IMG/VR virus record: IMGVR_UViG_2740892440_000004
Span: 1-40,921 of that record
Length of the DNA: 40,921 nt
Reading direction: 5' to 3' (one strand)
Source: a virus
Lineage: Duplodnaviria > Heunggongvirae > Uroviricota > Caudoviricetes
Below the pieces are notes generated by a model, which saw only the letters and a list, made by a program, of their open reading frames with translations, was not told the DNA's origin and did not search any database. Of the stretch, positions 6,011 to 29,040 are shown piece after piece; the first letter of the stretch is position 1, and every line of letters starts with the position of its first letter. The position numbers and the translations under genes were made by a program.

Positions 6011-6017
6011 GTTGTAA

Positions 6018-8351: not shown

Positions 8352-8365
8352 GATGCAGTTCTCCC

Positions 8366-8689
8366 TCAGTGTAAAACCGGCTTTATAATGTGACGGACGC
8401 ATAACTCATCCATTACGGCTATTCCGAGCTGGGAGAGTGCGGGGCAGGACATTAGAGGACCGGATTCCATCAGGTCTGAAAGCAGGGCGCAGGCGATTTC
8501 CATGCCTTTTGTTTGCCCGTGCTGTCGCAGATAAAAACCTTCAAGCTCACGGGCAATGGCGGTTTCAATTTCATCCAGAGTGAGCTGCAGGTGGCGGTTG
8601 TGCTGATGGCAGATACTCAGCCAGGCGCAGGCAACCGCGCGGCGATATAACGCCAGCCGAAGTGAGAGGGGAAGAGTGCGTGATTTCAT
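8366..8689 (-). CDS. hypothetical protein (107 aa) of the satellite early operon
   Basis: ORF whose start overlaps the upstream stop (ATGA) and whose end overlaps the alpha start. Confidence 0.5.
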
Positions 8690-8913
8690 TGCACCACCTC
8701 CTTGTTCATCAGGTCATCCTGGCAACGCTGTACCACGCCATCAAGCTGTTCTGTCATCAGATAAATCAGGGAAACCAGTTGCTCACATTGAGCACCTGCA
8801 GGTTTTTCATAGCAGTCCTGAAGAACAGCCATTCCGGTGACAAATTCCCCCACGTTACGAAGATGCTTGAGGCGGACAATATCGTCATAAGAAATTGCGG
8901 CGTGATTCATCAC
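8686..8913 (-). CDS. hypothetical protein (75 aa) of the satellite early operon
   Basis: ORF coupled by ATGA overlaps on both sides. Confidence 0.45.
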
Positions 8914-9101
8914 ATCACCTCCCCGGCAGGCAGCCGTGCAGAAAGGGAGAGCACATAATCACGGACCAGCGAAAGGCGTGCAAAGCGCTCATCGCAGGCC
9001 ACGGTGCGAAGCATACAGATGCGGGGTTGAGTGTCAGCACGGCGGATTGCGGCAAGCACAAAGACATATTGCGGGTAAAACGGGGTGAGGGTTGTAGCCA
9101 T
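8910..9101 (-). CDS. hypothetical small protein (approx. 63 aa); the longer 183-aa ORF in the track is probably not real
   Basis: GGAGG upstream of an internal ATG; the long version would span a terminator-like hairpin at 9308-9333. Confidence 0.3.
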
Positions 9102-9307
9102 GATGGCAGCCTCCATTGAGTAGCGGTTATTGCTACCACCGGAAACGCCAATTTCACTGGTGGCAGCCCGAACGGGGTTGGCGTAACCGGCCTCAATGGA
9201 TACCGGCCAGCCCGAAGGCTGCCCCGCCCGGACTGCCATTATCTCGAAAGAACCACGGTGTACGCATAAACACCACAGCCTGGAAAATGGGTGTGCCAGA
9301 GCTTCGA

Positions 9308-9333
9308 CGAAAAAAAAGACGCTTGGCGCGTCT
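9308..9333 (-). terminator. rho-independent terminator downstream of the alpA-like gene
   Basis: hairpin agacgc-ttggc-gcgtct followed on the minus strand by an 8-T run. Confidence 0.4.
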
Positions 9334-9460
9334 GGTGTCGCCATTGAGTTTCGCGGAACGCCAATTCCGGCTGCCGATTTTGCGGCAGCGGAAAAACTAT
9401 ACCTGGAAATGACTGCAGGATGCAAGCCAGAAAAATGGGGATTAATGCGTTCAGGCATCA

Positions 9461-9721
9461 TTATGCATCACATCCCCGTCCGCGGGCACTTATACGATCC
9501 GCCATCCATGCGCTTACCTCTGACTGTGCCCAGGCAACATTTTTACCACCAAGTGGGATCTGCTTCGGGAAAGCATCGCGGCTTATCAGGTCGTATATAG
9601 TTGAGCGGGACAAGCCGCATAAATGCATCACCTCGGGAAGACGTAAAAATCGCTCATGCTGGTTCAGCACAGGAAATAATGGCGCAGCCGGAGCTGGCGC
9701 AGAAACAGAAATATCATGCAT
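9461..9721 (-). CDS. alpA: AlpA-family prophage transcriptional regulator / excisionase-like DNA-binding protein
   Basis: 86 aa with HTH segment [39 protein letters not shown] characteristic of AlpA/Vis-type regulators of P4-like elements. Confidence 0.75.
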
Positions 9722-10283
9722 TTATCTACCCTCTTTAATTCCTTCATCAGTCCGGATAAATCCCCCCGGATTCAGGTAGTTCCTTATTATGTATATATTT
9801 CTCGCTTACGCACCCATTATTTATTTAGCGTCACATATTGATTTAATGGAATTTAAAACTATATCAAACCACATAAAATGGCATGATAGATATTATGTCT
9901 GCGAACTATAAATACAGGGACATTAATAGGAACTAACTTTCATCCAGGGGTTACTACCCCATAAGTCATAGAACTTAATGGTACTGAAACCGCAACCCAT
10001 TCAGCAGGGATGCACAATTTCTACATATGGCTTTACATTGCAAACCTAACTTCAGGATATACTCATGAATTGCATCAAGCTCAGAAGAATTAGAACCGCA
10101 TAAAATCAATAACCACGCATTCTTAACCTAAAAATATATCCAAATAAATTCATAAAAGACCGAGCAGTTCTAGTTTTATAAAAATCAGATTGAAATGCAA
10201 CACCAGGGAAAGGGGGGAATCATGTTATTTCCCGGCAAAGAAAAATCGTCTATTTCATCATCTGTTGAATACTACTGAAGAGT

Positions 10284-10480
10284 GGTGAATAGTTGTGAGG
10301 AACAATAATGAAATAATCATTCGGAATAAAAATTTCACTTTTGATGAAAAAAAATCATAAATCACGCTACCTTCCGATGAACACTCATGAACAGTCACTG
10401 AATACTGCCTTGTCAACCCTTCACCTCTTAACTAGCTGTATTATCAATTTTTTTATCAAAGTGAACAGTAGTGAATAGTA
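10284..10480. repeat. second iteron-like cluster (GGTGAATA, ATGAACAG, GGTGAAGG, GTGAACAG, GTGAATAG) in an AT-rich non-coding region; possible ori-like site
   Basis: at least five TGAAC/TA-type octamers in a 200-bp ORF-free segment about 4.4 kb from the cluster at 5879-5957. Confidence 0.3.
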
Positions 10481-10544
10481 TTTATTAAAGGAAAGTTGAA
10501 GATCAGACATGACACATTTCTCTGGCTAGCCAGAACAAGGTCAT

Positions 10545-10562
10545 TGTTCTGTCACTGACACA
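10545..10562 (+). promoter_or_regulatory. TGT-N12-ACA element (Ogr/Delta-dependent late promoter motif) upstream of the sid-like operon
   Basis: TGTTCTGTCACTGACACA about 75-90 bp upstream of the sid-like start, matching the P2/P4 late-activator site consensus. Confidence 0.5.
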
Positions 10563-10702
10563 ATCCCCCTCGGTAGTGCGCTTGTATGGGCATCGGCACA
10601 ATTGACACGACAACAAAACACTACCGGAGCATTCATGACTACTGTTAACCAGATCTCTGATGCAAACATTACATCCTCCCTCCCGCCGAAAATTCGCGAA
10701 GC

Positions 10703-11386
10703 GTGGAAAACGTTAAGGCAGCAAAAGCTGTCTGGCAGGAAGAACGGCGAAAACAAACTGAAGCTGCTGCAATGATTGAAACTATCCGTAAACGTCAGGA
10801 AGATACAAAAACGGAAACGCAGGCGCTTAATGATGAATGGCGAAACCTGTTTCGTGAGAATCAGGGAAATATGACACCACGCATGAAAAAACTGCGGGCA
10901 GAAATCGCCCTCGGACGCGAAACACTGGATGAGTTCGAAGATTTGCTGGCAGCTCAGGTGGCAGAAAATGAATTCCTGCCCTGGAAAACTGCGGATGCTG
11001 CAAACCACTACATCAGCGAACATAATCGCCTGATTGAAACTCATGCAGTGTGGCTCTGGAATGAGTTTATGAAGGAACACGGCCAGAAACTTATTCAGAT
11101 CCTTGGACTGTTGAAAATGACTCTGGGCCGAAGCGCTTCTGCTGTTATCGGTGTAGTTCATACCGTAAACGACCCCGAAAGTGTGCTGAAGCAATTTATC
11201 AGCGAGCAACTCACCACTCCGGCACTGTCCTGTAACGTATCTTCAACGGATGATATTACCCTGCCGGGGATCAGCATTTATGCGGACGATAAAGCCATCC
11301 AGGATGCCAGACAATCCCCCAGCCCTGCAGCGCGTTCACGGATGCTTAAACAGCGTGACATGGTTAAAGGGGGCGAGAAGAAATGA
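10703..11386 (+). CDS. putative Sid-like capsid size-determination (external scaffold) protein; probably starts at ATG 10635 with a frameshift near 10705
   Basis: first gene of a +strand operon followed by psu and delta; coiled-coil-like Glu/Arg/Ala-rich sequence; ATG 10635 has a GGAG RBS and reads into this frame if one base is restored. Confidence 0.45.
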   Translation: MENVKAAKAVWQEERRKQTEAAAMIETIRKRQEDTKTETQALNDEWRNLFRENQGNMTPRMKKLRAEIALGRETLDEFEDLLAAQVAENEFLPWKTADAANHYISEHNRLIETHAVWLWNEFMKEHGQKLIQILGLLKMTLGRSASAVIGVVHTVNDPESVLKQFISEQLTTPALSCNVSSTDDITLPGISIYADDKAIQDARQSPSPAARSRMLKQRDMVKGGEKK

Positions 11387-11937
11387 ATGCCGGAACCATT
11401 ACTCAGGAAGCTCTCAACGATTACCGCTCGGCGATAAAAAGCTGGCTGACACTACGTAATACGCAAAGTACCTACCAGCTTCGTCTGGCGGCTCTGCTGA
11501 ATACTGAAGAAAAACCGGCAGCATATGCCAGCCAGCTTGAGGAGCTTCGTGAGCGTCTTGCTGTCCTCGAATGGCAGATTAACTGTGCTGCACGGGATGG
11601 TCTTTATGCTCACCAGATTGTGCTGGAGAGTTGTGTTACAAGCGCAACGGAAAACTTCATGAGCGAGCATGGTGATGCACTCACTGACGCACTGGCTCCT
11701 TTTCTTTGCGCTCCATACGGGCTTGAGGCGGCAATGAAAATATTACGAACCGCTGTAGCCCGACAAACGGAAGTGCGTACTCCGGTAATTTCAGCAGCAT
11801 ACAAGAGCATTATCGACGAAACCGGATTAACGGTGGATGCATCAATGTACGCTGATGCTTCAACCAGTTTCACCCCGGCACAACATAAAGTTTTCCTGGC
11901 CCGCCTTAACCGACTTAATGAAAAAGGAGGGTACTGA
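11383..11937 (+). CDS. psu: Psu-like polarity suppression (capsid decoration) protein
   Basis: 184 aa; ATGA overlap with upstream gene; segments ...MSEHGDALTDALAPF... and ...FTPAQHKVF... resemble P4 Psu as recalled. Confidence 0.7.
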   Translation: MNAGTITQEALNDYRSAIKSWLTLRNTQSTYQLRLAALLNTEEKPAAYASQLEELRERLAVLEWQINCAARDGLYAHQIVLESCVTSATENFMSEHGDALTDALAPFLCAPYGLEAAMKILRTAVARQTEVRTPVISAAYKSIIDETGLTVDASMYADASTSFTPAQHKVFLARLNRLNEKGGY

Positions 11938-11938
11938 T

Positions 11939-12211
11939 ATGGCCCTGAAGTGTCCTGAATGTGGGACGGTCGCTCACGCCAGAACCAGCGCCTATGAAGC
12001 TCCATCGGTTAAACGCTCATGGTATCAGTGCCAGAATCTGGAATGTTCCTGCACATTTACCGCTCTGGAAAGCGTGGATACGATAATTATGAAGCCTTGG
12101 CGCAATGAACAGGAATCAGACAAAGAACAAATGCCAGAAAAACAACAGCAAACTCTCAACCGCTATGGCTCCGCGTCAAAGCTGTCAAGCCGTCAGCTAA
12201 TTCCTGTCTGA
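11939..12211 (+). CDS. Delta/Ogr-family zinc-finger late-gene activator
   Basis: MALKCPECGTVAHARTSAYEAPSVKRSWYQCQNLECSCTF matches the Ogr/Delta C-x2-C...C-x4-C pattern (CPxCxxxAHARTS...YxQCxN). Confidence 0.8.
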   Translation: MALKCPECGTVAHARTSAYEAPSVKRSWYQCQNLECSCTFTALESVDTIIMKPWRNEQESDKEQMPEKQQQTLNRYGSASKLSSRQLIPV

Positions 12212-12234
12212 TTAGCAAAATACGCCCACGTAGT

Positions 12235-12259
12235 CCCGGTCCAGTACCGGGATTTTTTA
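12235..12259 (+). terminator. rho-independent terminator after delta
   Basis: hairpin cccggt-ccagt-accggg followed by ATTTTTT. Confidence 0.55.
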
Positions 12260-12289
12260 CGCCTTTTCCCTGGCTGGCCTGAAGGCGTA

Positions 12290-12445
12290 TGAGTGCATAT
12301 CTATAGCGCATGAAAACGCATGAGTCTCATGCGCCATTTTTGACGCGAAAGCCCTTGTGTGGTGGCTTCTGAGACGATTTACGGGGTGCATGAAAACCAG
12401 TCTGTTAAGCGAAGCGGGCAGGCGGGCGGGGCAGCGCACGCTGTG
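12290..12445. other. cos-like packaging site of the P4-like satellite (candidate)
   Basis: approx. 150-bp non-coding block homologous to 26830-26990 (shared ggtgcatgaaaacca and aagcgggcaggcg); core GGCGGGCGGGGCAGCGCAC at 12421-12439 resembles the recalled P2/P4 cohesive end GGCGAGGCGGGGAAAGCAC. Confidence 0.4.
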
Positions 12446-12636
12446 TATGGTCAAAGTAACTTTTAACTTTCAATGAGTACCTGATTGAAAGAATCGTTTA
12501 TCACGTTAAAGCGATAACAATGATTTTAAGCAGCGAGTGTGGTGTAAGTATCATTGTCGAGTAAAAATGTTGCAAGCTATTGAAATAAGTATATATTGCA
12601 AATGATGAGGAAAATAAAATATGCAAGGACCTACTC

Positions 12637-13578
12637 ATGGATGCACTGCATGTCGCGCTTGAAAATCTGATTAGAGATGATGGTCAAACACTAAATAGTT
12701 ATTTTAGTGAAGTTAAAGTTAATTCATTGATTGAAAATACAAATGCAACTTGTCATTTTCATTGCCTTAATCTTGATGGCAATGGACGTCCTCGGGTAGA
12801 CGCGTTAATCCAATTCTTGAACGATAAAGTAGTTGATTATGCTATTCCAAGGAAAAAAATCAATGAGGCAGTGCAATATTTTAATGAAACACAATCAACA
12901 GCGAAAATAACAAAATTAGCAAATCAAGCAAAAAAATTATTTACTAGGCTTGCAAATAGTGGCGAAGGCGGTGAATTTATTCTTTTTTTATTTGCAGAGC
13001 AATTCCTTAGATTTCCACAAATTATTTGCAAAATGAGCCTGAAAACGAGTTCTCAAATGCATTACCATGGTGCAGATGGAATACATATAGGCGTAGATAA
13101 AGATAATAAAAAATTATGTTTATACTGGGGCGAGTCTAAACTCTATTCCAATCTGAGCAAAGGTATTTCTGAGTGTATGGATAGTATAGCTCCATTACTT
13201 CAAAGTTCTATGGGAATAGAAGGCGCTGAGACACGTGATATGCAGTTGCTGGAGTCGCACTTAAATGTTGATGATATAGAACTAGAACAAGCGTTGAAAA
13301 GATTCTTAGATCCTGATAGCCCGGATTTTAATAAATTGGAATACAGAGGAATATGCTTAGTTGGGTTTGATCTTAAAGATTATCCACAAGGGCCCAGTTC
13401 AATTGATATCAGTGAACTAGTTGCTTTGATTAATACTAAAGTCGGGAAATGGTCAACTAGTGTGCAAGGTGGTATAGTTAATAAAAAACTTGATCGCTTT
13501 GCTATGCATGTTTTTATTCTTCCTTTTCCTTCAGTAAAAGCATTTAGGGCTAGTTTAATTAAAGCATTGGAGAGTTGA
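12637..13578 (+). CDS. cargo protein 1 (313 aa) with a PD-(D/E)xK-like nuclease motif; candidate defence effector
   Basis: low-GC ORF; segment HGADGIHIGVDKDNKKLCLYWGESK has D...D...ExK spacing typical of PD-(D/E)xK nucleases. Confidence 0.6.
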   Translation: MDALHVALENLIRDDGQTLNSYFSEVKVNSLIENTNATCHFHCLNLDGNGRPRVDALIQFLNDKVVDYAIPRKKINEAVQYFNETQSTAKITKLANQAKKLFTRLANSGEGGEFILFLFAEQFLRFPQIICKMSLKTSSQMHYHGADGIHIGVDKDNKKLCLYWGESKLYSNLSKGISECMDSIAPLLQSSMGIEGAETRDMQLLESHLNVDDIELEQALKRFLDPDSPDFNKLEYRGICLVGFDLKDYPQGPSSIDISELVALINTKVGKWSTSVQGGIVNKKLDRFAMHVFILPFPSVKAFRASLIKALES

Positions 13579-13579
13579 A

Positions 13580-15514
13580 ATGTCGTTGCGAGATTTATCT
13601 GGGTGGTTGATTAAGAATCAAGGATTCTTAAGAAAATATCAGGCATTAGTCGCTAACTCGATAAAAGATCAATTTCCAGAGTTAAAATCAGATGTAATCC
13701 CACAGATTAGTTCTGAGGATGTCGGCTATCTTTTAACATGTGCTAGTTCTTTGGCTTTCTCAAGTGATGAGAAATGCCAAGATGCAGCCTTAAGGATTGC
13801 ACAGTATTGCTTATTGAATGAAAAAAGTGAAGCAAGAAAAGATAGTGCTGCATTAATTCTTGATTCATTATCTAATAATCCAGCAATACAACTTGCTGAA
13901 AATAGGGGGTATCTTAACCCTGATTTCGAAGAAAGATTACCCTTAAAGGCTCAGTTAGAACTAACTAAAAGAAAAATTCTATATACAATTGAAATAGATG
14001 CTGATAAGCATATTTATGCTAATAGGTTTCAATCAGAGTTTTGGGATGCGGTACAAGAAAACTCATGGGTTAGTGTCTCTGCTCCTACCTCTGTAGGAAA
14101 ATCATTTATCCTGGAATCTTGGGTGGAGCAGTTTGTAAAAAGAAATAAGAATTGCTTAGTTATTTATATCGTACCAACAAGGGCATTGATTTCAGAAGTA
14201 TATTCTGAGTTGCAAAAACGTTTGGATCCTAATTTAACAAATATAGTTAATATTCAGACACTACCATTGAGTAATGTATACCAGAGCGAAAAATCTAATG
14301 TCTTCATATTTACACAGGAAAGATTAAATTTATTCTACAATCATTTCTCACAAATTCCAAAGATAGACGTCTTAGTTGTTGATGAAGCACACAAGATCGG
14401 TGATGGTGGAAGAGGTGTTATTCTTCAACATGTAATTGAACTGACTTGTCTAAATAACCCTGATTCAAAAGTTATCTTTGCAAGTCCTTTCACCTTAAAT
14501 CCTGAAATATTGCTCAGTGATGCTCCAATATTAAAAAACAAAAGAACTATAAAAAGTGACTATGTTACAGTTAATCAAAATTTAATATGGGTAGAACAAA
14601 AACCACGCAAGACCAAAGATTGGTTGATGTATTATTTTGCAAACGGTGAAAAACGCGAGTTAGGAAACTTTTCTTTAGAAAATGCACCATCTCCTGAAAG
14701 TAAAAGATTGCCTTTTGTAGCTCTTTGTTTAGGTAAGGGGGCTTCTGGTAACGTAGTTTACGTAAATGGAGCCGCTGAAGCAGAATCTACTTCCAAGCTA
14801 ATATCTGCAAGTATAGAAAATGAGACTGAGGATGAAGAAATTTTAGCTCTCGTTGAGCTTAGTGAGACAATTATACATAAAAATTTCGCATTAAATCGCA
14901 CTCTAAAAAAGAGAGTCGCTTTTCATTATGGCAACATGCCTTTAATAATAAAGGGCGAGATTGAACGATTGTTTAGTAAAGGTAAGATTGATTTTTTAAT
15001 TTGTACCTCAACTTTAGTTGAGGGCGTAAACATGGCTTGTAAAAATATTTTTATAAGAGGCCCTAAAAAGGGTAATTCAACCCCGATGCGAGAAGAGGAT
15101 TTTTGGAATCTTGCTGGCAGAGCTGGTCGTTGGGGAAAAGAATTCCAAGGTAATGTCATCTGCATCGATAGCGACAATGAAAAAATTTGGAATGGAGAGC
15201 CTCCAAAAACCAAAAAAAATATATTTATAACTCGCGCCACGGATGCTATTTCCCATGACATGGATAAGTTGGTTTCCTATATTTTTTCAGAGCATCATTT
15301 TGGTATGTCTGAGCGGAATCCTAATCTCCAGAGTCTATTTAGTTATTTATGTTCATCATTTTATTTTTATAATGGCTTGGATAATAATCCTTACATGGAA
15401 AAGTACAATATAAAAAATATCGATGTTTTAAATGAAGCAATATTTGATGTTTTTGATTCTTTAACTTTTCCACACGAATTGGTTGTGCGGCATCCTGGTA
15501 TAAGCCGCTTTTAA
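13580..15514 (+). CDS. cargo protein 2: superfamily-2 DEAH-box helicase (644 aa)
   Basis: motif I APTSVGKS, motif II VVDEAHKI, motif V TSTLVEGVN, motif VI NLAGRAGRWG; starts 2 bp after gene 1. Confidence 0.8.
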   Translation: MSLRDLSGWLIKNQGFLRKYQALVANSIKDQFPELKSDVIPQISSEDVGYLLTCASSLAFSSDEKCQDAALRIAQYCLLNEKSEARKDSAALILDSLSNNPAIQLAENRGYLNPDFEERLPLKAQLELTKRKILYTIEIDADKHIYANRFQSEFWDAVQENSWVSVSAPTSVGKSFILESWVEQFVKRNKNCLVIYIVPTRALISEVYSELQKRLDPNLTNIVNIQTLPLSNVYQSEKSNVFIFTQERLNLFYNHFSQIPKIDVLVVDEAHKIGDGGRGVILQHVIELTCLNNPDSKVIFASPFTLNPEILLSDAPILKNKRTIKSDYVTVNQNLIWVEQKPRKTKDWLMYYFANGEKRELGNFSLENAPSPESKRLPFVALCLGKGASGNVVYVNGAAEAESTSKLISASIENETEDEEILALVELSETIIHKNFALNRTLKKRVAFHYGNMPLIIKGEIERLFSKGKIDFLICTSTLVEGVNMACKNIFIRGPKKGNSTPMREEDFWNLAGRAGRWGKEFQGNVICIDSDNEKIWNGEPPKTKKNIFITRATDAISHDMDKLVSYIFSEHHFGMSERNPNLQSLFSYLCSSFYFYNGLDNNPYMEKYNIKNIDVLNEAIFDVFDSLTFPHELVVRHPGISRF

Positions 15515-16161
15515 TGCAAAACCTTTGGGATAGATTTTCGCGGGATACAAACAAACCTGTAGAGAGATTACTGCTTTCTGAACCTGGTAGTAATGATGCG
15601 TTAGATTCATATGTATCCGCATTCTCTAGAATTAGTGATACTCTGAGTAAGAAGCTAGGTTATAATTCAAAAGGAGCTTACGTACAGGCCTTGTTAGTTT
15701 CCAAGTGGATGAAAGGTTATCCCCTAGCAAGATTGATCTCGGATAGAATAAGATATAACAAAAAGAAAAATATTGTTTTCAAAGAAGCGACTTTAATACG
15801 AGGGGTTATGAAGGATGTTGAAGAGATCGCTCGCTATCAAGCTCCAAGGCTTTTAGGATGTTATAATGATTTATTAAAAAGCTTTTATCTTTCGATAGAT
15901 CGCACAGACTTAGCAAAAGATGTTGAAGATATCGGTGTTTATTTAGAACTGGGTGTAAGTTTAAAAACTCAGATTTCACTAATAGGGCTTGGCTTTTCAA
16001 GAACTGCTGCTGTAATGATTTCAGAGCTTATTCCTAATGATAGTTTAGATGAGGAAGAATGCATTAATTGGATTAAGGACAATAAAGTTGACATGGAAGA
16101 ACTGCCACAATTAGTTCAAAACGAAATACATAATATATTTCGTAACTTTTGGGTACAATAG
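15514..16161 (+). CDS. cargo protein 3 (215 aa), unknown function; coupled to the helicase by TAATG overlap
   Basis: low-GC ORF immediately following the helicase in a different frame. Confidence 0.6.
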   Translation: MQNLWDRFSRDTNKPVERLLLSEPGSNDALDSYVSAFSRISDTLSKKLGYNSKGAYVQALLVSKWMKGYPLARLISDRIRYNKKKNIVFKEATLIRGVMKDVEEIARYQAPRLLGCYNDLLKSFYLSIDRTDLAKDVEDIGVYLELGVSLKTQISLIGLGFSRTAAVMISELIPNDSLDEEECINWIKDNKVDMEELPQLVQNEIHNIFRNFWVQ

Positions 16162-16192
16162 TCTTATTTAGACGATTTTTTAAACAATCAAT

Positions 16193-16240
16193 AGAGAAGT
16201 TTTTGAATTTTATCATTCTTCCAGTAACAAAAACTTCTCT
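16193..16240. terminator. long-loop hairpin between convergent cargo genes (possible bidirectional terminator)
   Basis: 12-bp inverted repeat agagaagttttt / aaaaacttctct separated by 24 nt, flanked by T-runs. Confidence 0.3.
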
Positions 16241-16253
16241 TTTATAACACCGC

Positions 16254-16711
16254 TCAGGCTATTCCAGAATAGGCTTTGCTTACTTCACTATGCCTTGTGC
16301 CGCAATGCCTCAAAATAACAAGGCCATGTTGCAGTAACGCCTCACTACGTTCAGGTTCAAACCATTTCCCGTTAAATTTTCCTCCGTGAAAAAGATTGTT
16401 TCTTACACGGCGGATTAACAAAAAAAGAAATTTTGCTAAATCTTTTTCTTGTGGTAAAGAATCATCCAAACTAAAGAGTCATCTTCTATGATTTGTTTTT
16501 TGGGTGGGTGTTCTTTAAAGTAGGTGATAGCAGCAATTAGCTCTGGATCAGTTGTGTTATTTATGATTTCAGAAACTTGCTTTGCATACTCATCCCAGTT
16601 CGCTTTAGCATCTTTTATTTTATGATGAAGTCCACATGCCTTAAGGCAATATTCATAACGTGAAAACTCTCTAAAGAATTCATAACATAAATTATCTAGA
16701 TTATTCTCCAT
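16254..16711 (-). pseudogene. HEPN-like small protein (Rx4H motif), split into two ORFs by an apparent 1-bp G-run contraction
   Basis: ORFs 16436-16711 and 16254-16469 overlap; restoring one G in tttgg-atg fuses them into approx. 160 aa; C-terminal part contains IRRVRNNLFHGG, i.e. R-x4-H as in HEPN RNase motifs. Confidence 0.45.
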
Positions 16712-16740
16712 GAACTATATCTCCATGTATAACAAGTTAA

Positions 16741-17940
16741 CTAATATTGATTGCGCTCGTACACTTTTTGGCCCCACCAATTCATAAGTCCTATTCGTTG
16801 CTCAAGGTAAGTTGAACGATTATATGCTCTGCGCACTTCATTTTTATCACTATGTGCAAGAGCAGCCTCAATTACATCTGCATTAAAACCCGCTTCATTT
16901 AATGCGGTGCTGGCAATTGAACGCAATCCATGAGCAACCAATCTACCACCAAATCCAATCCTTTTTAAAGCAGCATTTGCCGTCTGGCTATTCATTGGTT
17001 GCTTTGGGTCATTCCGACTCGGGAAAACATGTTCACGATGGGCACTGATTAGCTTCATCACATCAAGAATCTCTAATGCCTGAGGAGATAGAGGGACTAT
17101 GTGTTCCCGCTTAGCCTTCATTCGTTCAGCTGGGATAGTCCAGAGCTTTGCATCGAGATCGAGCTCAGCCCACCTAGCACCGGAAGCCTCAGAAGGACGA
17201 ACTAGAGTCAGGAGTTGCCACTCAATGAGGCAGCGAGTCGGAACAGACAAATTTGACATGACGAGAGAACGCATCAGCATAGGCAATTCTTCTGGGCGCA
17301 ACGTAGGCATATTTTGTTTTTTTGGCTTCTCAAAGGCCATTCCAATGCCTGATGCTGGATTGGCATCAATAAGACCAGTATTTACGGCATAAATCATTAT
17401 CTCGTTAACACGCTGCACCAACCGGCGCACCGTCTCCAGCGCCCCACGAGCTTTGATCGGTTCAAGGGCTTCAACCAGTGTTCGGGCTTTGATTTGCTGG
17501 ACAGGGATCTCCCCGATGGTGGGGAATACGTCTTTTTCCAGTGAACGCCATATATCTTTAGCGTAATCATGGGTAACGCTTTTGCTTTTGAGCTGGAACC
17601 AGTTAGCGGCGACCGTCGAAAAAATACTGTCCAGAGCGATTTGCTGCTGTTCCTCTGCAACTTCAGCTTGAATTTGCGGGTCGATTCCGTTGGCTAATAG
17701 GGCAAGGTAATCTGCTCTTAACCCTCGGGCATCAGCAAGAGAAAGGGCAGGAAAAGCACCAAGTCCCATCATAGTCCGCTGTTTTGTTGCTGGGCGTTGA
17801 TAGCGAAAGCGCCAGAGTTTCTTGCCGCTAGTTTTCACTATCAGGAAAAGCCCATCGCCATCATGCAGCGTTAGATCCTTCTCTAACGCTTTCGCGCGCA
17901 GAACTTCGGTGTTGGTCAGGGGGCGTGTTGTCCGTGCCAC
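16741..17940 (-). CDS. int: P4-type tyrosine integrase
   Basis: 399 aa; catalytic segments AHGLRSIASTAL (HxxR) and RAYNRSTY (Tyr); positioned next to the tmRNA-derived att fragment. Confidence 0.9.
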   Translation of the reverse strand: MARTTRPLTNTEVLRAKALEKDLTLHDGDGLFLIVKTSGKKLWRFRYQRPATKQRTMMGLGAFPALSLADARGLRADYLALLANGIDPQIQAEVAEEQQQIALDSIFSTVAANWFQLKSKSVTHDYAKDIWRSLEKDVFPTIGEIPVQQIKARTLVEALEPIKARGALETVRRLVQRVNEIMIYAVNTGLIDANPASGIGMAFEKPKKQNMPTLRPEELPMLMRSLVMSNLSVPTRCLIEWQLLTLVRPSEASGARWAELDLDAKLWTIPAERMKAKREHIVPLSPQALEILDVMKLISAHREHVFPSRNDPKQPMNSQTANAALKRIGFGGRLVAHGLRSIASTALNEAGFNADVIEAALAHSDKNEVRRAYNRSTYLEQRIGLMNWWGQKVYERNQY

Positions 17941-18050
17941 TGTGGCCGCTCCTTCATGAATTGGTATACGCTTTTAGGTATACATCCTACCGTATACCGA
18001 AACGTATACCAATAATCATCGGATTTAGCCGGATGTTCTCGGACAACGAC

Positions 18051-18088
18051 AAACACAAAAAAGCCCGCAGCTTGTGCCATGCGGGCTT
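18051..18088 (-). terminator. rho-independent terminator between the att fragment and the satellite integrase
   Basis: 9-bp stem aagcccgca / tgcgggctt with 10-nt loop, followed on the minus strand by TTTTGTGTTT. Confidence 0.4.
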
Positions 18089-18122
18089 TCTGTACTTCAC
18101 CGGACGTATCCGGATCATTATT

Positions 18123-18167
18123 TGGTGGAGCTGGCGGGAGTTGAACCCGCGTCCGAAATTCCTACAT
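18123..18167 (-). other. 45-nt copy of the tmRNA (ssrA) 3' end: attachment-site junction between the P4-like element and the 186-like prophage, not a complete tmRNA gene
   Basis: reverse complement reads ATGTAGGAATTTCGGACGCGGGTTCAACTCCCGCCAGCTCCACCA, the T-arm/acceptor/CCA end of enterobacterial tmRNA; match stops after 45 nt and upstream sequence is unrelated AT-rich DNA. Confidence 0.8.
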
Positions 18168-18252
18168 ACCATTTTTACTATAATAAAAACATGTATTTAT
18201 CTTTAAAATTAGTGTGTTAGTATTATTGTGTATTTGCTTGTTTTACCTATTT

Positions 18253-19314
18253 TTAATCCTCTGCCGCCAAAGTGCCGCCATCATCAACTGTCACCGGTTT
18301 CTCCATTACGTATGCTGACCATTCAGGAGAATAGAATGGTTGCAAAAATTTAGAAAATTGTTCTGTATCAAATTTAATTTCACCAATGTACAAGTAGTTA
18401 TATATATTACTGTAGTTTTGAAGCTGAAATCCGTAAGCTAGTTTTAATATCTTTTTAGATAGATAAAATGCAGCCTCAAGTGATTCGGCTAACATTGATT
18501 CTGTAGGGGTGAACGTTCTTATTTTAGTGCCGTTGATTTTTAACTCTATATAGGCTATCGAGATACAATCTACGCATAAAGTATCTAATAATTTAGCTAT
18601 GTTATATGAAATTGTATTTAATCTGGTAAGGTAATCTTCTGCATTTGAATGGGGTGTAACCTTATCTTTTGATAAGTTATTATTAATGGTATCTAGGATT
18701 GACAATATGCTTTTTTTAAAGTTCTCGTCTGGTGAATAATTGGATGTGATATCCATTGACGATTCTGTATATATATTGGAATATAATAAGTATGGGTTTG
18801 AGATTTTAATTTCATGAGTTGTTAGTATTTTAATTTTGTTGCTATCATTGTAATTATAATATTTTGATGCGTCATCTACAAAGCTTTGCATCGTAAAGCT
18901 TGATATTTCTTTAATTTTATCTACGAAATTTTTCTCATGAGCAAAATGTCTATCGATTGCATTTTTGATTTCAGATGAATTAATTTGTGCTTCGGTTTGT
19001 ATCGTTCTGTGAATGTTATTTACTATGGAAGCTAATGGTACAGAACTTGCGAGTATCAATAATGGGAATTTGCTTATCTCATAGAATCTGGCATATCCGT
19101 GAGCAGAAAGAACAGGTATTTTACCAAACCATGCAAATGCTCCAAAATAAATGAATGACAGCAGTGGTACTGCAATTGAAATCCAAAATAATTTCTGTTG
19201 AAATAAATTTCTTTTATCGAGAATGTACCACTTTTTATATATTGATACAAACGCAAAAAGAATAATTGCCAAAATATACACAATAATTCCAGTAAAGCTA
19301 GTATTAATGTTCAT
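18253..19314 (-). CDS. low-GC membrane protein (353 aa, three N-terminal TM helices plus approx. 250-aa soluble domain); moron co-transcribed with the phage integrase
   Basis: start ATG overlaps the integrase stop (ATGA); hydrophobic segments FTGIIVYILAIILFAFVSIY, LFWISIAVPLLSFIYFGAFAWF, FPLLILASSVPLASIV; AT-rich relative to neighbours. Confidence 0.7.
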   Translation of the reverse strand: MNINTSFTGIIVYILAIILFAFVSIYKKWYILDKRNLFQQKLFWISIAVPLLSFIYFGAFAWFGKIPVLSAHGYARFYEISKFPLLILASSVPLASIVNNIHRTIQTEAQINSSEIKNAIDRHFAHEKNFVDKIKEISSFTMQSFVDDASKYYNYNDSNKIKILTTHEIKISNPYLLYSNIYTESSMDITSNYSPDENFKKSILSILDTINNNLSKDKVTPHSNAEDYLTRLNTISYNIAKLLDTLCVDCISIAYIELKINGTKIRTFTPTESMLAESLEAAFYLSKKILKLAYGFQLQNYSNIYNYLYIGEIKFDTEQFSKFLQPFYSPEWSAYVMEKPVTVDDGGTLAAED

Positions 19315-20332
19315 ATAATATTTAAATTAAATAGTGGGTTTTTAGTTACTGCATCTTCAAGATGCTCTGGTGAAAAATGGGCATAAACCATAGTCATCTT
19401 AATATCTGAATGCCCTAAAATATCCCTCAAAACGAGTATGTTTCCGCCATTCATCATGAAGTGACTGGCGAATGTGTGGCGCAGTACATGGGTGCATTGG
19501 CCTTCTGGCAGCTCAATACCCGCGCGTTTAACCGCCCGCTCAAAGGCTTTTCTACATGGAGTGAATAGCTTCCCTCTGTTTTTGGGGAGTTCATCATACA
19601 GATCCTGAGATATCGGCACAGTACGGTTTTTCTTGCCTTTTGTTTTTGTATAAGTAATTCGGTATTTCGATATTTGATGGCCCTGCAGATTTTCGGCTTC
19701 ACTCCACCGTGCGCCAGTAGCTAGGCATATTTTTGCAATCATTAGTAAGCTAGGGCTTTGAGATTCAGCACATGCCGCCAACAGGCGCTTGATTTCGTCC
19801 GTGGAAAGAAAAGCCAGCTCACCTTCGGCAATTTTGAAGGTCGGAAGTCCTGCCAGCGGGTTTGGTGCTGACCAGTGTCCTAGTTTTTTTAATGTACCGA
19901 ACACAGATGATAGATTGCGCTGTTCAAGGTTTACCGTGCGGGGCTTAACGGGCGACATAAGCGTGCCATCTTCATTTCGTATTTCACCTTTTAACCGTGC
20001 TTCGCGGTATTTTGTAAAGTCACCAGCTGTCAGTTCTGAGGCGATGGGATCGCCTAGACCATTACAGATAATTCTAAGTTTCGCCATGAGGCGCTTGGGG
20101 TCTGCGAGTGTTTGACCATATAGGGAATACCAAAGCTCAATTAATTCTGATAGCGTCGCCGATCATCCTTTTCACCCAACCACGGTTTTTTATTCACTTC
20201 TTCCATTGTGAAGCTTTCAAACGCAATGGCTTCGCCTTTCGTGGCAAATTGCTTACGCACGCGCTTGCCATTGCGTCCATTGGGATAGCACTCACACAAC
20301 CATTTTCCGTTCGGCTGTTTTCTGATGGTCAT
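19311..20332 (-). pseudogene. int: P2/186-type tyrosine integrase, frameshifted near 20130-20140
   Basis: N-terminal ORF (20141-20332) MTIRKQPNGKWLCECYPNGRNGKRVRKQF... and C-terminal ORF (19311-20087) with HVLRHTFASHFMMNGGNILVLRDILGHSDIKMTMVYAHF; combined length approx. 337 aa. Confidence 0.8.
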
Positions 20333-20333
20333 A

Positions 20334-20966
20334 TCAAAGGCTCTTAATGATTTTCAGTGCGCGGCCTACTACCTCAATGTCATCCAGACCGCACTCAAAC
20401 GATGAATCATCCTGATGCACTACTAATTTGTTTCCCGGGAGTCGAGTCAATTTAACGATGCTTTTTATCCCGTCGATATCGACTAACCACATACCATTTA
20501 CTGGTGGTGTTTGGTTGCGATCTATTAAATAAGAATCACCAGAAGTAGTCACCAGCAGTAGGTTGCTTGAGTCTGAGGGGAGTATGCTGCTATCAATGAT
20601 TGCTTTTCCAGCATCGACCAATAAACCACCGTTGAGAGTCGCCTTGTCAATTTCAGGAGATACTAGTTCAGAAAGAGGTACAACCTTGCTGGAGTTCACG
20701 GAATTGATATTTTTTTTAGGTTCAATGTTTGGACCTGGCTCTCCCTGTCCGGTGGTTAGCCACAGTAAAGAAACTCCTGTTTCCAAGGCGCACTGAATCA
20801 CCCACTCTGCAGGAAAACTATCTCTTAAGTATCTGTTTGCCATGGTGCTTTTTGATGCGCCTAAGTGATCGCAAAGTTGCTGTCTGGACTTGAAATCATA
20901 GGCTGCCATTAGTCTATGGATAGCCTCTCTTCCCCCTGTATTCTCTCCAACCTTTACCTGTATCAT
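20334..20966 (-). CDS. CI-type immunity repressor with N-terminal HTH and LexA-like (S24) C-terminal domain
   Basis: 210 aa; HTH LCDHLGASKSTMANRYL; C-terminal LLLVTTSGDSYLIDRN...GIKSIVKLTRLPGNKLVV aligns with the LexA Ser/Lys region (VSGMSM ... TVKRL..GNKV); divergent from the lytic operon. Confidence 0.75.
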   Translation of the reverse strand: MIQVKVGENTGGREAIHRLMAAYDFKSRQQLCDHLGASKSTMANRYLRDSFPAEWVIQCALETGVSLLWLTTGQGEPGPNIEPKKNINSVNSSKVVPLSELVSPEIDKATLNGGLLVDAGKAIIDSSILPSDSSNLLLVTTSGDSYLIDRNQTPPVNGMWLVDIDGIKSIVKLTRLPGNKLVVHQDDSSFECGLDDIEVVGRALKIIKSL

Positions 20967-21360: not shown

Positions 21361-21870
21361 ATGTTTGATTATAAGATTTCCAAACACCCGCATTTTGATG
21401 AAGCCTGTAGAGCTTTTGCACTTCGTCACAATATGGCGAAGCTGGCAGAACGTGCAGGTATGAATGTCCAGACTCTGCGAAACAAACTCAACCCAGATCA
21501 ACCGCATCAGCTCAATGCGTCAGATATCTGGCTACTTACCGATCTGACGGAAGATTCAACGCTGGTAGACGGTTTTCTGGCACAGATTCACTGCCTGCCA
21601 TGTGTACCGATTAATGAGGTGGCAAAAGAGAAACTGCCACATTACGTCATGAGTGCAACCGCAGAGATCGGGCGTGTTGCTGCAGGTGCGGTATCTGGCG
21701 ATGTAAAAACCAGTGCAGGTCGTCGTGATGCTATCAGCAGCATTAACTCTGTTACACGACTGATGGCGTTAGCTGCTGTTTCATTGCAGGCCCGTTTACA
21801 GGTTAATCCTGCGATGGCAAGTGCAGTTGATACTGTAACTGGCCTCGGTGCTTCATTCGGTTTGCTGTGA
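21361..21870 (+). CDS. cII: CII-like lysogeny establishment regulator (186 CII family)
   Basis: 169 aa beginning MFDYKISKHPHFDEACRAFALRHNMAKLAERAGMNVQTLRNKLNP, closely resembling coliphage 186 CII as recalled. Confidence 0.75.
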   Translation: MFDYKISKHPHFDEACRAFALRHNMAKLAERAGMNVQTLRNKLNPDQPHQLNASDIWLLTDLTEDSTLVDGFLAQIHCLPCVPINEVAKEKLPHYVMSATAEIGRVAAGAVSGDVKTSAGRRDAISSINSVTRLMALAAVSLQARLQVNPAMASAVDTVTGLGASFGLL

Positions 21871-22684: not shown

Positions 22685-22911
22685 TGGCTGATGCAATGGA
22701 TCTCGTACAGCAGCGCGTTGAAGAAGAACGCCAGCGTCATATCCGTGCTGCCCGTGCCAAAACGCCGGGCGTGTCCCGCGTGCTTTGCATTGAGTGTGAA
22801 GCGCCAATTCCGCCAGCACGCCGCCGTGCCATTCCGGGTGTGCAGCTTTGCATTACCTGTCAGGAAATCGCAGAGCTGAAAGGCAAACATTACAACGGAG
22901 GTGCTGTATGA
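22684..22911 (+). CDS. TraR/DksA-family C4 zinc-finger protein
   Basis: CIECEAPIPPARRRAIPGVQLCITCQE, a C-x2-C...C-x2-C motif typical of phage TraR/DksA-like proteins. Confidence 0.7.
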   Translation: MADAMDLVQQRVEEERQRHIRAARAKTPGVSRVLCIECEAPIPPARRRAIPGVQLCITCQEIAELKGKHYNGGAV

Positions 22912-23765
22912 GCACCATCCTGAAATGGGCGGGAAATAAAACCGCCATTATGTCCGAACTGAAAAAGCATCTTCCTGCTGGCCCGCGACTGGTTGAACCT
23001 TTCGCGGGTTCCTGTGCAGTGATGATGGAGACGGAGTACCCCAGCTATCTTGTTGCGGATATTAATCCTGATTTAATCAACCTCTATAAAAAGGTTGCTG
23101 CTGATTGTGAATCGTTTATATCTCGCGCCAGAGTTTTATTTGAGATCGCAAACAGGGAGGTGGCTTATTACAACATAAGGCAGGAGTTTAATTACTCAAC
23201 TGAAATTACTGATTTCATGAAAGCGGTATATTTCCTGTATCTCAATCGTCACGGTTACCGTGGTTTATGTCGCTATAACAAGAGCGGGCATTTCAACATT
23301 CCCTACGGTAATTATAAAAATCCGTATTTCCCTGAAAAAGAAATTCGCGCATTTGCAGAAAAAGCCCAGCGAGCAACGTTTATCTGCGCCAGCTTTGATG
23401 AAACGCTGGCGATGTTGAAGGCGGGGGATGTGGTGTATTGCGATCCGCCGTATGACGGTACGTTTTCCGGCTATCACACTGATGGTTTCACTGAAGATGA
23501 CCAGTATCACCTGGCATCCGTTCTTGAACATCGGTCATCAGAAGGACATCCGGTCATTGTTTCTAACAGTGACACATCCCTGATCCGTTCGCTGTATCGC
23601 AATTTTACTCACCACTATATCAAGGTAAAACGCAGCATCGGTGTGGCAGCTGGCGAGGGTAAATCAGCAACAGAAATCATTGCTGTTTCCGGGCCGCGCT
23701 GCTGGGTGGGATTTGATTATTCGCGTGGCGTGGATAGTTCTGCCGTGTACGGAGTACGTGCATGA
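22908..23765 (+). CDS. dam: DNA adenine methyltransferase (Dam-like, N6-adenine)
   Basis: N-terminal LKWAGNK...EPFAGSCAV (SAM-binding) and catalytic DPPY ([13 protein letters not shown]). Confidence 0.85.
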
Positions 23766-26175
23766 GCCATGCCGATATGAACAACTGCTGCGGCTTTAAC
23801 GAGGCTGCCGCAGCGTTCTCATGGAACAGCCCGAAAAAGGCCATTAACCCTTATCTGGACCCGGCGGAAGTTGCGCCGGTTTCTGCGCTTTCAAACCTGA
23901 TCGCTCTGTACGCTGCCGATAACGAGCAGGAACACCTGCGCCGCGAGGCACTGAGTGATCAGGTCTGGGAGCGTTATTTCTTTAATGAATCCCGTGATCC
24001 TGTCCAGCGCGAAATGGAGCAGGATAAGCTCATTAGTCGGGCAAAGCTGGCGCATGAGCAGCAGCGTTTTAATCCAGATATGGTCATTCTGGCGGACGTC
24101 AATGCCCAGCCTTCCCATATCAGCAAGCCGCTGATGCAACGTATTGAATACTTCAGCAGCCTGGGCAGGCCAAAGGCTTATTCCCGCTATTTGCGTGAGA
24201 CGATTAAGCCATGTCTGGAGCGACTGGAGCATGTACGCGACAGCCAGCTATCTGCATCTTTTCGTTTTATGGCAAGCCATGTAGGGCTGGACGGCCTGCT
24301 GATTCTGCCTGAAATGAGTCAGGATCAGGTGAAACGCCTGTCTACTCTTGTCGCTGCGCATATGAGCATGTGTCTTGATGCCGCTTGTGGTGATTTGTAC
24401 GCCACCGATGACGTTAAGCCAGAAGAAATCCGCAAAACATGGGAAAAGGTGGCAGCGGAAACCCTGCGTCTGGATGTTATTCCGCCTGCGTTTGAGCAAC
24501 TCCGTCGGAAAAGAAACCGCCGTCAACCCGTGCCCTATGAACTCATTCCGGGTTCGCTGGCGCGTATGTTGTGTGCCGACTGGTGGTACCGGAAATTATG
24601 GAAAATGCGTTGCGAATGGCGGGAAGAGCAGTTGCGTGCTGTCTGCCTGGTCAGCAAAAAAGCATCTCCCTATGTCAGCTATGAAGCCGTGATTCATAAA
24701 CGTGAGCAGCGCCGCAAGTCACTGGAGTTTTTCCGTTCTCATGAACTGGTGAACGAAGAGGGCGACACGCTGGATATGGAAGACGTGGTAAACGCCAGCA
24801 GCAGCAACCCGGCGCACCGCCGCAATGAGATGATGGCCTGTGTTAAAGGTCTGGAGCTTATCGCGGAAATGCGCGGTGACTGCGCCGTTTTCTACACCAT
24901 TACCTGTCCGTCACGTTTCCATTCCACGCTCAATAACGGCAGACCAAACCCAACCTGGACAAATGCGACGGTAAGACAAAGCAGCGATTATCTGGTCGGC
25001 ATGTTTGCTGCATTTCGTAAGGCGATGCACAAAGCCGGGTTGCGCTGGTATGGCGTGCGGGTGGCTGAGCCGCATCATGACGGTACAGTTCACTGGCACC
25101 TGTTGTGTTTCATGCGCAAAAAAGACCGCCGCGCCATTACTGCATTGTTGCGTAAGTTTGCCATCCGTGAAGACCGCGAGGAACTGGGTAATAACACTGG
25201 TCCACGCTTTAAATCTGAGCTGATAAACCCGCGCAAAGGAACGCCGACAAGCTACATCGCGAAATACATCAGTAAGAACATTGACGGGCGTGGTCTGGCT
25301 GGCGAGATCAGCAAGGAAACGGGTAAATCCCTGCGTGATAACGCTGAATACGTTAATGCCTGGCGTCTCTGCATCGTGTACAGCAATTCCGCTTCTTTGG
25401 TATTCCGGGACGTCAGGCTTACCGTGAACTTCGCTTGCTGGCTGGTCAGGCGGCAAGGCAACAGGGTGACAAAAAAGCAGGTGCGCCGGTACTGGATAAC
25501 CCGCGTCTTGATGCCATTCTGGCTGCTGCTGATGCTGGTTGTTTTGCCACCTACATCATGAAGCAGGGCGGCGTACTGGTTCCCCGCAAATATCACCTCA
25601 TCAGAACCGCTTATGAAATCAACGAAGAGCCGACCGCCTATGGCGATCACGGCATTCGTATTTATGGCATCTGGTCACCCATTGCAGAGGGCAAGATCTG
25701 CACTCATGCAGTGAAGTGGAAAATGGTTCGTAAGGCCGTTGACGTTCAGGAGGCGGCAGCCGACCAGGGCGCTTGCGCCCCTTGGACTCGTGGCAATAAC
25801 TGTCCCCTTGCTGAAAATTTGAACCAACAGGAGAAAGATAAATCAGCTGATGGGGACCCCAGAACGGACATTACCAGCATGGATGACAAGGAGTTGCACG
25901 ATTACCTGCACAGTATGAGCAAAAAAGAGCGCCGGGAACTGGCAGCAAGGTTATGCCTGGTGAAACCGAAACGGCGTAAAGACTACAAACAGCGAATTAC
26001 AGACCATCAGCGACTGCAGCTCGTGTATGAGCTGAAGTCCAGAGGATTTGATGGCAGCGAGAAAGAGGTCGATTTACTCCTTCGCGGAGGCAGTATTCCG
26101 TCAGGAGCAGGCCTGCGTATCTTCTATCGGAGCCAGCGTTTGCAGGAAGATGATCAGTGGCGGAACCTGTATTAA
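23762..26175 (+). pseudogene. P2 gpA-family replication initiation endonuclease, frameshifted at about 25363
   Basis: HUH-like [11 protein letters not shown] and catalytic tyrosines YIAKYISKN; frame a ends in junk after ...EYVNAW while frame b continues [29 protein letters not shown]...; restoring one G in tgg-cg fuses approx. 805 aa. Confidence 0.8.
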
Positions 26176-27131: not shown

Positions 27132-27827
27132 ATGAAATTGATTGAACAGACGCATCAGATTAATTTTTTCACAAATAATAATGATATAGTTCCAAATACA
27201 CTAACTATTGGATCTATGCTTGATAAGATTGGAAAATTTGGATTTGTACCTACTTTTGGTCAGGAGATTAATGCCATCACTGGTGAGAAAAAGCAAATTC
27301 TTATCATGGTAGATACCAATCAAACAGTAAGAGTCGAGTTTCCTAGCCATGGAATCATTTTTAATGGTTTGGGGGGGGAACCTCAAGCGTTTTCAGAAAT
27401 GGTTCTATCTATATCTAGGGAACTACAAAACGTATTTCCGATGAAAAAAGGAAATAGGATAGCTGTTCTGAATTCACGTATCTATCAAGGGGATGAATCT
27501 GTTTACTCTTCGCTTTACAATGCTTTGTTTACCTATAAAGGTGTTAATCCATTTGAGTGGGACAATCGTATAGCTGTAAGGAAAAATATTGAAGAGTATC
27601 AGGAAGAAATTAATAGTATTAGTACAATTAGACGCGCTGAAATTTCAGCTCCATTTTTGAATAATGGTATGCCAAGTGATTGCGTATTATTTGAAACTGA
27701 TACTAATACTCTTCCTCAAAATGGATATATGCGGTTTGGTTGGGATGAATATATCCGCGTGCTAGAGTTATTGTGTCAGGACAATCTTAAAACTATTGAT
27801 AATTTACAACGCTACACTTCTCTGTAA
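27132..27827 (+). CDS. cargo protein X1 (231 aa), unknown function
   Basis: low-GC ORF, first of three tightly spaced genes between the cos-like site and the portal gene; no recognisable motif. Confidence 0.75.
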   Translation: MKLIEQTHQINFFTNNNDIVPNTLTIGSMLDKIGKFGFVPTFGQEINAITGEKKQILIMVDTNQTVRVEFPSHGIIFNGLGGEPQAFSEMVLSISRELQNVFPMKKGNRIAVLNSRIYQGDESVYSSLYNALFTYKGVNPFEWDNRIAVRKNIEEYQEEINSISTIRRAEISAPFLNNGMPSDCVLFETDTNTLPQNGYMRFGWDEYIRVLELLCQDNLKTIDNLQRYTSL

Positions 27828-27836
27828 GGTGATGCT

Positions 27837-29010: not shown

Positions 29011-29040
29011 AAAAGCCCTCGATTGAGGGCTTGCTTTAAA
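29011..29040. terminator. bidirectional rho-independent terminator between cargo operon and portal gene
   Basis: hairpin agccctc-gatt-gagggct flanked by AAAA upstream and TTTAAAAATT downstream. Confidence 0.55.

Follow-up and report, generated by a model that had tools for sequence, protein, structure and literature searches.

A putative tandem array of mobile elements nested at the tmRNA gene of Escherichia coli

No integration hotspot is better known than the tmRNA gene ssrA, and displaced or 'damaged' fragments of such genes are the standard means by which islands are mapped. In a passage of PMC3448106 that cites Pelludat 2003, the phages Fels-2 and SopEPhi are described as integrating in ssrA. 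Displaced tDNA fragments mark the ends of islands, and tandem arrays as well as 'damaged' fragments have been catalogued in the Islander paper (PMC4383910), where the passage noting 'damaged' displaced fragments credits them to Williams 2003. Base U357 of tmRNA is removed by excision of CP4-57 and CP4So, which inactivates tmRNA (PMC10107115, PMC5148205). In E. coli K-12, a stretch of 14 nt at the end of CP4-57 is annotated as the ssrA pseudogene psaA (b4645).

The window, i.e. the whole stretch of 40,921 nucleotides analysed here, corresponds to the interval of an E. coli chromosome from ileY/ypjCB to ssrA and is oriented antiparallel to ssrA. Its bases 1-6500 are 100% identical to strain 789, in which ypjCB, a recombinase (pinH) remnant, ypjA and a P4-type primase are annotated. 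No tRNA or tmRNA gene was detected in the window with ARAGORN, nor a tmRNA with Rfam. The only Rfam matches in the window were a C4/CI-type antisense RNA and isrK, which both lie within a P4-like satellite.

It is most probable (about 85%) that the window is filled by nested mobile elements, each of which integrated at the 3' end of ssrA. Each arriving element would have supplied its own copy of the ssrA 3' end, whereby the gene was kept intact and the earlier 3' end was displaced outward as a scar. The innermost layer would be a 186/Fels-2-type prophage whose integrase would use a 45-bp identity block, with ssrA itself located beyond the right edge of the window; the middle layer would be a 12.4-kb P4-like satellite with an IntA-type integrase, and the outermost layer what remains of an IntA-type island, with ypjA, the pinH remnant and the IS3 fragment but no longer an integrase. 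A three-layer island array had been proposed in an earlier note on this DNA. This proposal is supported, with the oldest layer as a remnant in which no integrase of its own was found.

The 45-nt ssrA fragment and the prophage

The right part of the window contains the following features:

18123-18167, minus strand: last 45 nt of ssrA, an exact match to K-12 ssrA; attR of the 186/Fels-2-like prophage
18130-18137 and 18138-18145: left-end site of the satellite within the 45-nt fragment, consisting of the crossover block and the ssrA-side core site GAGTTGAA
18168-40921, continuing past the window: 186/Fels-2-like (P2 family) prophage, assigned by homology, with the gene order of strain D3
18168-18252: P arm of the prophage
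18253-19314, minus strand: prophage cargo ORF of 353 aa, PHROG 17460 (unknown function)
19323-20332: 186-type integrase, 97% identical to the Cartapus integrase, with one 1-nt gap
20334-20966: cI
21361-21870: cII
22848-23765: Dam methylase
23762-25561: replication gene A
29036-31826: portal and terminase
after 31826 to the window end: head and tail genes

The sequence at 18123-18167 (TGGTGGAGCTGGCGGGAGTTGAACCCGCGTCCGAAATTCCTACAT) is the exact reverse complement of the last 45 nt of K-12 ssrA (45 of 45 positions, reaching the CCA end), and the identity to ssrA ends after these 45 nt. No further ssrA segment longer than about 12 nt was found when the window was compared with K-12 ssrA. The statement that only the last 45 nt of the gene are present was borne out by this exact match, which is unique in the window.

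The attP regions of the phages Cartapus and SEN8 contain an identical 45-nt block with the same right flank and a P arm that starts with 'accattttta', and the matches to SopEPhi and Fels-2 likewise begin at the start of the block. Since block and right flank occur together in free phages as well, the block is the att core of Fels-2/186-type phages and, as had been claimed, an att repeat and not the gene. To the right of the fragment follows 'accatttttactata...', the arm adjoining the identical block in attP of Cartapus and SEN8. To its left lies the same sequence as downstream of intact ssrA in strain 789, and then the satellite integrase. With these hybrid flanks (789-type on the left, phage-type on the right) the fragment fits the right-end site (attR) of the prophage. 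An origin of the 45-mer as leftover of a deleted ssrA gene was also considered and is ruled out by the block and flank shared with free phages.

Strain 789, in which the satellite adjoins intact ssrA directly, served as the empty-site comparator. Positions 1-18167 of the window are colinear with this strain (99.93%), and the alignment stops exactly at 18167, the end of the repeat. The full array occurs in strain D3 in the order smpB, ssrA, prophage Ogr/D, head genes, A, cII, cI, integrase, cargo, 45-nt fragment and satellite integrase, and a junction of this tandem type was found in 79 of 5426 complete E. coli genomes. Strains 789 and D3 together confirm the description of the fragment as a tandem-integration junction. 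The sequence identities, the boundaries, the empty-site strains and the attP sequences of free phages are direct observations.

The window contains neither the gene itself nor the far end of the prophage. A position of the prophage proximal to ssrA is nevertheless supported by the orientation of the 45-nt block, which as a terminal 3' fragment on the minus strand is that expected for a gene lying upstream, and by the homologous arrays in other strains: strain D3 has the same prophage gene order, and its intact ssrA adjoins the Ogr end. In the window's own chromosome, the intact ssrA would be followed after CCA by the terminator trailer 'aataaatcaaggggttacg...' at the Ogr/D end of the prophage.

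For the cargo ORF between the P arm and the integrase, neither Pfam nor PADLOC gave a match. The same slot is occupied by a RES-domain gene in Cartapus and by two hypothetical genes in strain D3, which suggests that the cargo at this position varies. Three further ORFs, each matching a PHROG of unknown function and none giving a PADLOC match, are located at 27132-29005 between gene A and the portal gene, a position at which P2-like phages carry defence cargo.

In comparison to strain 789, the window shows seven gap positions, which are all single bases missing from the window (e.g. 2216, 5557, 10703, 15505, 16466 and 18070). The base missing at 15505 splits HamB, and similar 1-nt gaps split the 186-like integrase (~20150) and the portal gene (~29440). 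With gaps of this one type only, assembly errors are at least as likely as real frameshifts. The frameshifts were for this reason downgraded as a sign of a defective (locked) prophage, and the integrase, portal and HamB genes may owe their splits to the assembly instead of being pseudogenes.

The P4-like satellite and the order of integration

The middle part of the window contains the following features:

5542-5702, minus strand: arm located directly downstream of ssrA in strains without satellite and phage, according to the GF161 junction
5703-5720, minus strand: inner attR, the distal end of the satellite, consisting of GCTGGCGG and AGTCTGAATT; homologue of K-12 psaA (b4645), the attR of CP4-57
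5721-18122, minus strand: P4-like satellite of ~12.4 kb, assigned by gene content and by its 99.93% colinearity with strain 789
5784-5794, 17960-17970 (minus strand) and 18003-18013: exact copies of the arm-type site CGTATACCAAT
6018-8402: primase
9156-9243, minus strand: C4/CI-type antisense RNA (Rfam, full-length, 84.6 bits)
9312-9389, minus strand: isrK (Rfam, full-length, 76.7 bits)
10703-11937: Psu-like genes
12637-16161: Hachiman HamA/HamB in the cargo region between Psu/Delta and the integrase, HamB being split at 15505
16741-17940: tyrosine integrase with an arm-binding domain, 61% identical to K-12 IntA
18014-18122: the satellite's own ssrA trailer

The adjacent C4 RNA and isrK are probably the P4-type immunity region of the satellite. 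All arm-type sites lie within about 160 bp of a satellite end, and both ends possess at least one. In the satellite's trailer a hairpin was seen by eye only near 18055-18090, a stretch with a 2-nt gap relative to strain 789; the terminator scan, which permits only shorter loops, did not flag this hairpin. The satellite integrase would recombine within GCTGGCGG, with the left site at 18130-18137 in the 45-nt fragment and the right site at 5703-5720.

According to the earlier note, the position of the fragment implied that the phage had integrated after, and proximal to, the satellite. The proximal position stands on the D3 array and the orientation, whereas the later arrival is the parsimonious reading and is not given by the position. 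It is not deducible from the position because the 45-nt fragment contains the full short target of the satellite integrase, so that the same map results either way. We infer the recombination mechanism and the order of events from the comparison of strains. An integration of the phage as the last element is parsimonious in view of the nested series of strains GF161, 789 and D3, the numbers of the two junction types and the near-identity of the window to strain 789.

The reverse order, in which the phage arrived first, the satellite entered the displaced 45-nt fragment and satellite-only strains arose by precise excision of the phage, is unlikely, though it accounts for some of the evidence. 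The fragment holds the whole IntA-type target TGGTGGA-GCTGGCGG-GAGTTGAA, and the resulting map would be identical. Moreover, the Citrobacter locus L010 and the locus L067 contain a Fels-2-type prophage in the distal and an IntA-type island in the proximal position, which means that either order occurs in nature. Against this order, the satellite-only junction is present in 295 genomes and the tandem junction in 79, and several different elements are located proximal to the same satellite, as the matches end at different points inside the fragment. Furthermore, the window is 99.93% identical to a satellite-only strain (789).

The two elements would differ in the consequences of their excision. 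Recombination between the 45-nt repeat and ssrA by the phage integrase and its excisionase would leave a fully intact gene, whereas excision of the satellite would recombine 18130-18137 with 5703-5710. In strain 789, satellite excision would leave an ssrA ending in ...GCCAGC-CA, which is worse than the loss of U357. As the phage appears to separate the satellite from the working tmRNA gene in the window, excision of the satellite would alter the fragment only.

The 18-nt repeats and the outermost island

The left part of the window contains the following features:

1469-1530, minus strand: ssrA trailer with an intrinsic terminator, corresponding to the P' arm of Fels-2/186-type phages, which is placed just downstream of ssrA
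1531-1554, minus strand: outer attR core, consisting of TGTTGA, GCTGGCGG (crossover block) and TGTCTGAATT (element-side core site)
1555-1614, minus strand: terminal element-side arm (P arm) of the oldest IntA-type island, 94% identical over 52 nt to the P arm of the locus L067 (E 5e-19)
1615-5541: decayed cargo of the oldest island, according to the RefSeq annotation of the near-identical region of strain 789
~1631-1700: fragment of an IS3 transposase gene, 87% identical
~1712-1879: pinH recombinase remnant
2103-5186 and 5215-5541: split ypjA autotransporter gene

Two 18-nt repeats at 1537-1554 (GCTGGCGGTGTCTGAATT) and 5703-5720 (GCTGGCGGAGTCTGAATT) had been reported to differ by one mismatch, and this is the case. 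Without regard to its flanks, the pair is within what chance would give: the window contains three direct 18-nt pairs with at most one mismatch, dinucleotide shuffles contain 0.62 on average, and 45% of the shuffles contain at least one. It is the flanks that mark the 18-mers as real, namely the alignment of 1469-1614 as one block and the breaks of K-12 and GF161 homology at 5703-5720. Judged from this sequence context, both 18-mers are real attR sites of P4/IntA-type integrases, and the integrase system of the 45-nt repeat is not that of the 18-nt repeats.

The 18-mer is composed of 8 nt of ssrA (GCTGGCGG) and a 10-nt element-side core site (AGTCTGAATT). In the orientation of the window, K-12 psaA reads TGGTGG-GCTGGCGG, and AGTCTGAATT comes next. 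The homology of the window to K-12 covers the ypjA side and ends with ...GAATT, at 5720/5721. In strain GF161, the order of genes is ypjCB, pinH remnant, ypjA, ssrA and smpB, and the sequence passes at the junction from ...caatcatgat into TGGTGGAGCTGGCGGGAGTTGAACCC; its homology to the window ends at ~5703-5710, within GCTGGCGG. It follows from the GF161 junction that the shared crossover block is 5703-5710 (GCTGGCGG) and that 5711-5720 is part of the element. A search with 5600-5840 revealed many E. coli genomes in which 5600-5703 is located directly under intact ssrA. In GF161, judged by its junction sequence, the site is empty of the two newer elements.

Of the ssrA 3' end TGGTGGA, only 'TG' is left at the end of the arm at 5542-5702. 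At this inner attR the primase is adjacent and the integrase lies at the opposite end of the satellite; the cognate integrase and arm-type sites at both ends are present. The description of 5703-5720 as an island boundary is upheld by the GF161 and K-12 breaks, with the amendment that it is primarily the att site at the distal end of the satellite itself.

The motif TGGTGG(A)GCTGGCGGAGTCTGAA was found in 49 IMG/VR contigs. Many of these loci are integrated satellites of ~12 kb with the motif beside the primase and the integrase and an ssrA-type core at the other end; outside the motif they contain the ssrA trailer of another IntA-type element and are tandem arrays. A circularly permuted contig (L071) shows the order integrase, trailer, TGGTGGA-GCTGGCGG-AGTCTGAA, arm and primase, which represents a true attP. 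The stretch AGTCTGAA is invariant in the 49 IMG/VR loci, K-12, Citrobacter, Kosakonia and the attP of the circular satellite. Since it is invariant and also present in attP, it is a core-type site supplied by the element and not decayed ssrA. This 10-nt stretch would act as a core-type integrase site that mimics the T-loop of tmRNA.

The base equivalent to U357 is missing in 44 of the 49 IMG/VR loci, in both window copies, in both K-12 copies, in Citrobacter and in Kosakonia, and is present in the circular attP (L071) and the intact gene. In the inner window copy, four further bases are lost (TG and not TGGTGG), as in strain 789. The recombination model is incomplete in this respect because a crossover in GCTGGCGG between a U357-bearing attP and ssrA predicts an attR that bears U357.

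The outer copy is part of a longer conserved structure. Positions 1469-1614 align as one block with the locus L067 (91% over 146 nt, E 7e-55), the Citrobacter locus L010 and the Kosakonia loci L013 and L021, the weakest of these matches having an E value of 1e-28, and the block homology ends at 1614. The TGTTGA of the outer core is a decayed CCACCA end without the U357 base; its undecayed counterpart TGGTGG-GCTGGCGG-AGTCTGAA is present, with the same flanks on both sides, in L067, L010, L013 and L021. From these alignments, 1469-1614 has the attR architecture of an IntA-type island, i.e. trailer, core and P arm. The suggestion that the 18-mers bracket an older, decayed insertion with the autotransporter and recombinase remnants is thereby strengthened, as the outer copy possesses the full attR architecture.

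Within 1555-5700 no tyrosine integrase was found, but only the pinH serine-recombinase remnant and the IS3 fragment. Among the E. coli matches sampled, no empty site for this oldest layer was seen. Due to the absence of an integrase and of such an empty site, the layer is classed as a remnant and not as a complete island. The comparison with strains lacking each element, which the earlier note had recommended, succeeded for the phage (strain 789) and for phage and satellite together (GF161), and for the oldest layer none was seen among the matches sampled. Strain 23CRST024 (L025), which does not contain ypjCB-ypjA, was considered as an empty site of the oldest layer and was set aside as uninformative, since the segment was lost through an IS3-associated rearrangement. 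Between ileY and a 186-like prophage, this strain contains IS3, two ParB genes, a serine recombinase gene and an integrase gene interrupted by ISSen4; the interval has been remodelled by IS elements.

That the ypjA-pinH segment is ancestral chromosome, and the outer repeat a scar left by an inserted element that was lost elsewhere, is quite improbable. Such an origin would agree with the absence of an integrase, the almost universal occurrence of ypjA in E. coli and the lack of an empty site among the matches sampled. It conflicts with the IntA-type P arm (1555-1614) on one side of the segment and the ssrA trailer that abuts ssrA in GF161 on the other, a bounding geometry exactly as in an integrated island, and with the recombinase and IS debris within the segment. 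A literature search on ypjA, pinH or psaA as an island gave nothing relevant. In the phage collection no homologues of YpjCB were found, and these proteins are therefore not evidently phage cargo.

The 18-mers had also been interpreted as degenerate copies of the ssrA 3' end. This applies to GCTGGCGG only, as AGTCTGAATT is supplied by the element and occurs in the circular attP as well. An origin of the whole 18-mers by mutation of ssrA is very improbable: they match GCTGGCGGGAGTTGAA at 12 of 16 positions without gaps, but independent decay would not converge on an invariant AGTCTGAA, and the homology to the empty site of GF161 ends within GCTGGCGG. Alignment to the 3' end of a related ssrA, as had been advised, gave an exact match of the 45-nt fragment to K-12, and the 18-mers share GCTGGCGG with ssrA. 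Chance repeats in ordinary intergenic DNA unrelated to island boundaries, which the earlier note had named as the outcome that would overturn its reading, are hardly conceivable, because even with about 0.6 such pairs expected per shuffled window and two other pairs present, the strain-to-strain homology with K-12 and GF161 breaks exactly at the inner copy, the outer copy lies inside the 146-nt block (1469-1614) conserved in other genera with E values down to 7e-55, and the same motif terminates dozens of integrated satellites.

The preferred reading of the outer copy as attR of a decayed IntA-type island leaves the origin of its trailer to be considered. The trailer at 1469-1530 contains a terminator with a 12-bp stem (1522-1495), is 96.9% identical over 64 nt to the attP flank of Cartapus (E 2e-28) and matches 33 phage records including Fels-2, SopEPhi and SEN8. 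In the Citrobacter locus L010 and in L067, the same trailer is joined to gpD/Ogr of a real prophage distal to the IntA-type island. In the Fels-2 record an attP of only 47 bp is annotated, which implies a difference between the phage arm and the flank in the Salmonella host.

A tentative interpretation, to which we give somewhat less than an even chance, is that the array consists of four layers alternating between two integrase families. The trailer would then be a scrap of a Fels-2/186-type prophage that predates the ypjA island and was acquired early in E. coli, the innermost element would sustain tmRNA, and the phage would shield tmRNA from excision of the satellite. As the displaced fragments are systematically damaged, the working tmRNA gene would in such a four-layer array depend on the innermost element. 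Alternatively, the trailer may be the ancestral ssrA terminator, which was copied by phages.

A second family of ssrA trailers has the same terminator hairpin followed by repeated GTGGAC motifs (ggtggacgtaaagtggacat...) and was observed in nine loci (L008, L011, L012, L013, L015, L016, L020, L021 and L023). This type adjoins ssrA in Proteus, Photorhabdus, Salmonella, Kosakonia and others and probably represents the arm of a further family of elements that target ssrA.

Comparison with known systems

The prophage shares with Fels-2 and SopEPhi the cI-integrase-attP layout and an attP composed of the ssrA 3' end and a terminator-bearing trailer. It differs from these phages in its host, which is E. 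coli, in the 353-aa cargo ORF between integrase and attP, and in adjoining a satellite and not a naive flank.

With CP4-57 and psaA of K-12, the satellite has in common the chromosomal position, the attR sequence GCTGGCGGAGTCTGAATT, an integrase with 61% identical amino acids and the missing U357 base. CP4-57 comprises 22 kb, whereas the satellite in the window has 12.4 kb and contains primase, Psu, Delta and Hachiman. In addition, the arm beyond the 10-nt core site is unrelated, and the window copy shows the extra 4-nt loss. Satellite phage P4 resembles this element in its size, alpha primase, CI/C4-type RNA, Psu, Delta and integrase; P4 integrates in leuX, whereas the satellite integrase in the window targets ssrA.

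The locus also corresponds to the tandem arrays of the Islander type, in which displaced 3' fragments beyond an intact gene mark the boundaries of consecutive islands, and for which 'damaged' fragments carrying a small deletion close to the discriminator have been described. In contrast to those arrays, the oldest layer here would not be called under the rule that each member possesses its own integrase.

The boundaries of the three mobile elements, precise to the base, are of use for annotation and for extraction of the Hachiman-carrying satellite and the prophage, and they help to predict the effect of excision on tmRNA. In the 79 of 5426 complete E. coli genomes with the tandem junction, a P4-like satellite and a potential helper phage of the P2 family share one attachment locus. 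The stack belongs to a known kind, i.e. tandem islands at the tmRNA gene, and nothing in it alters the current understanding of such arrays.
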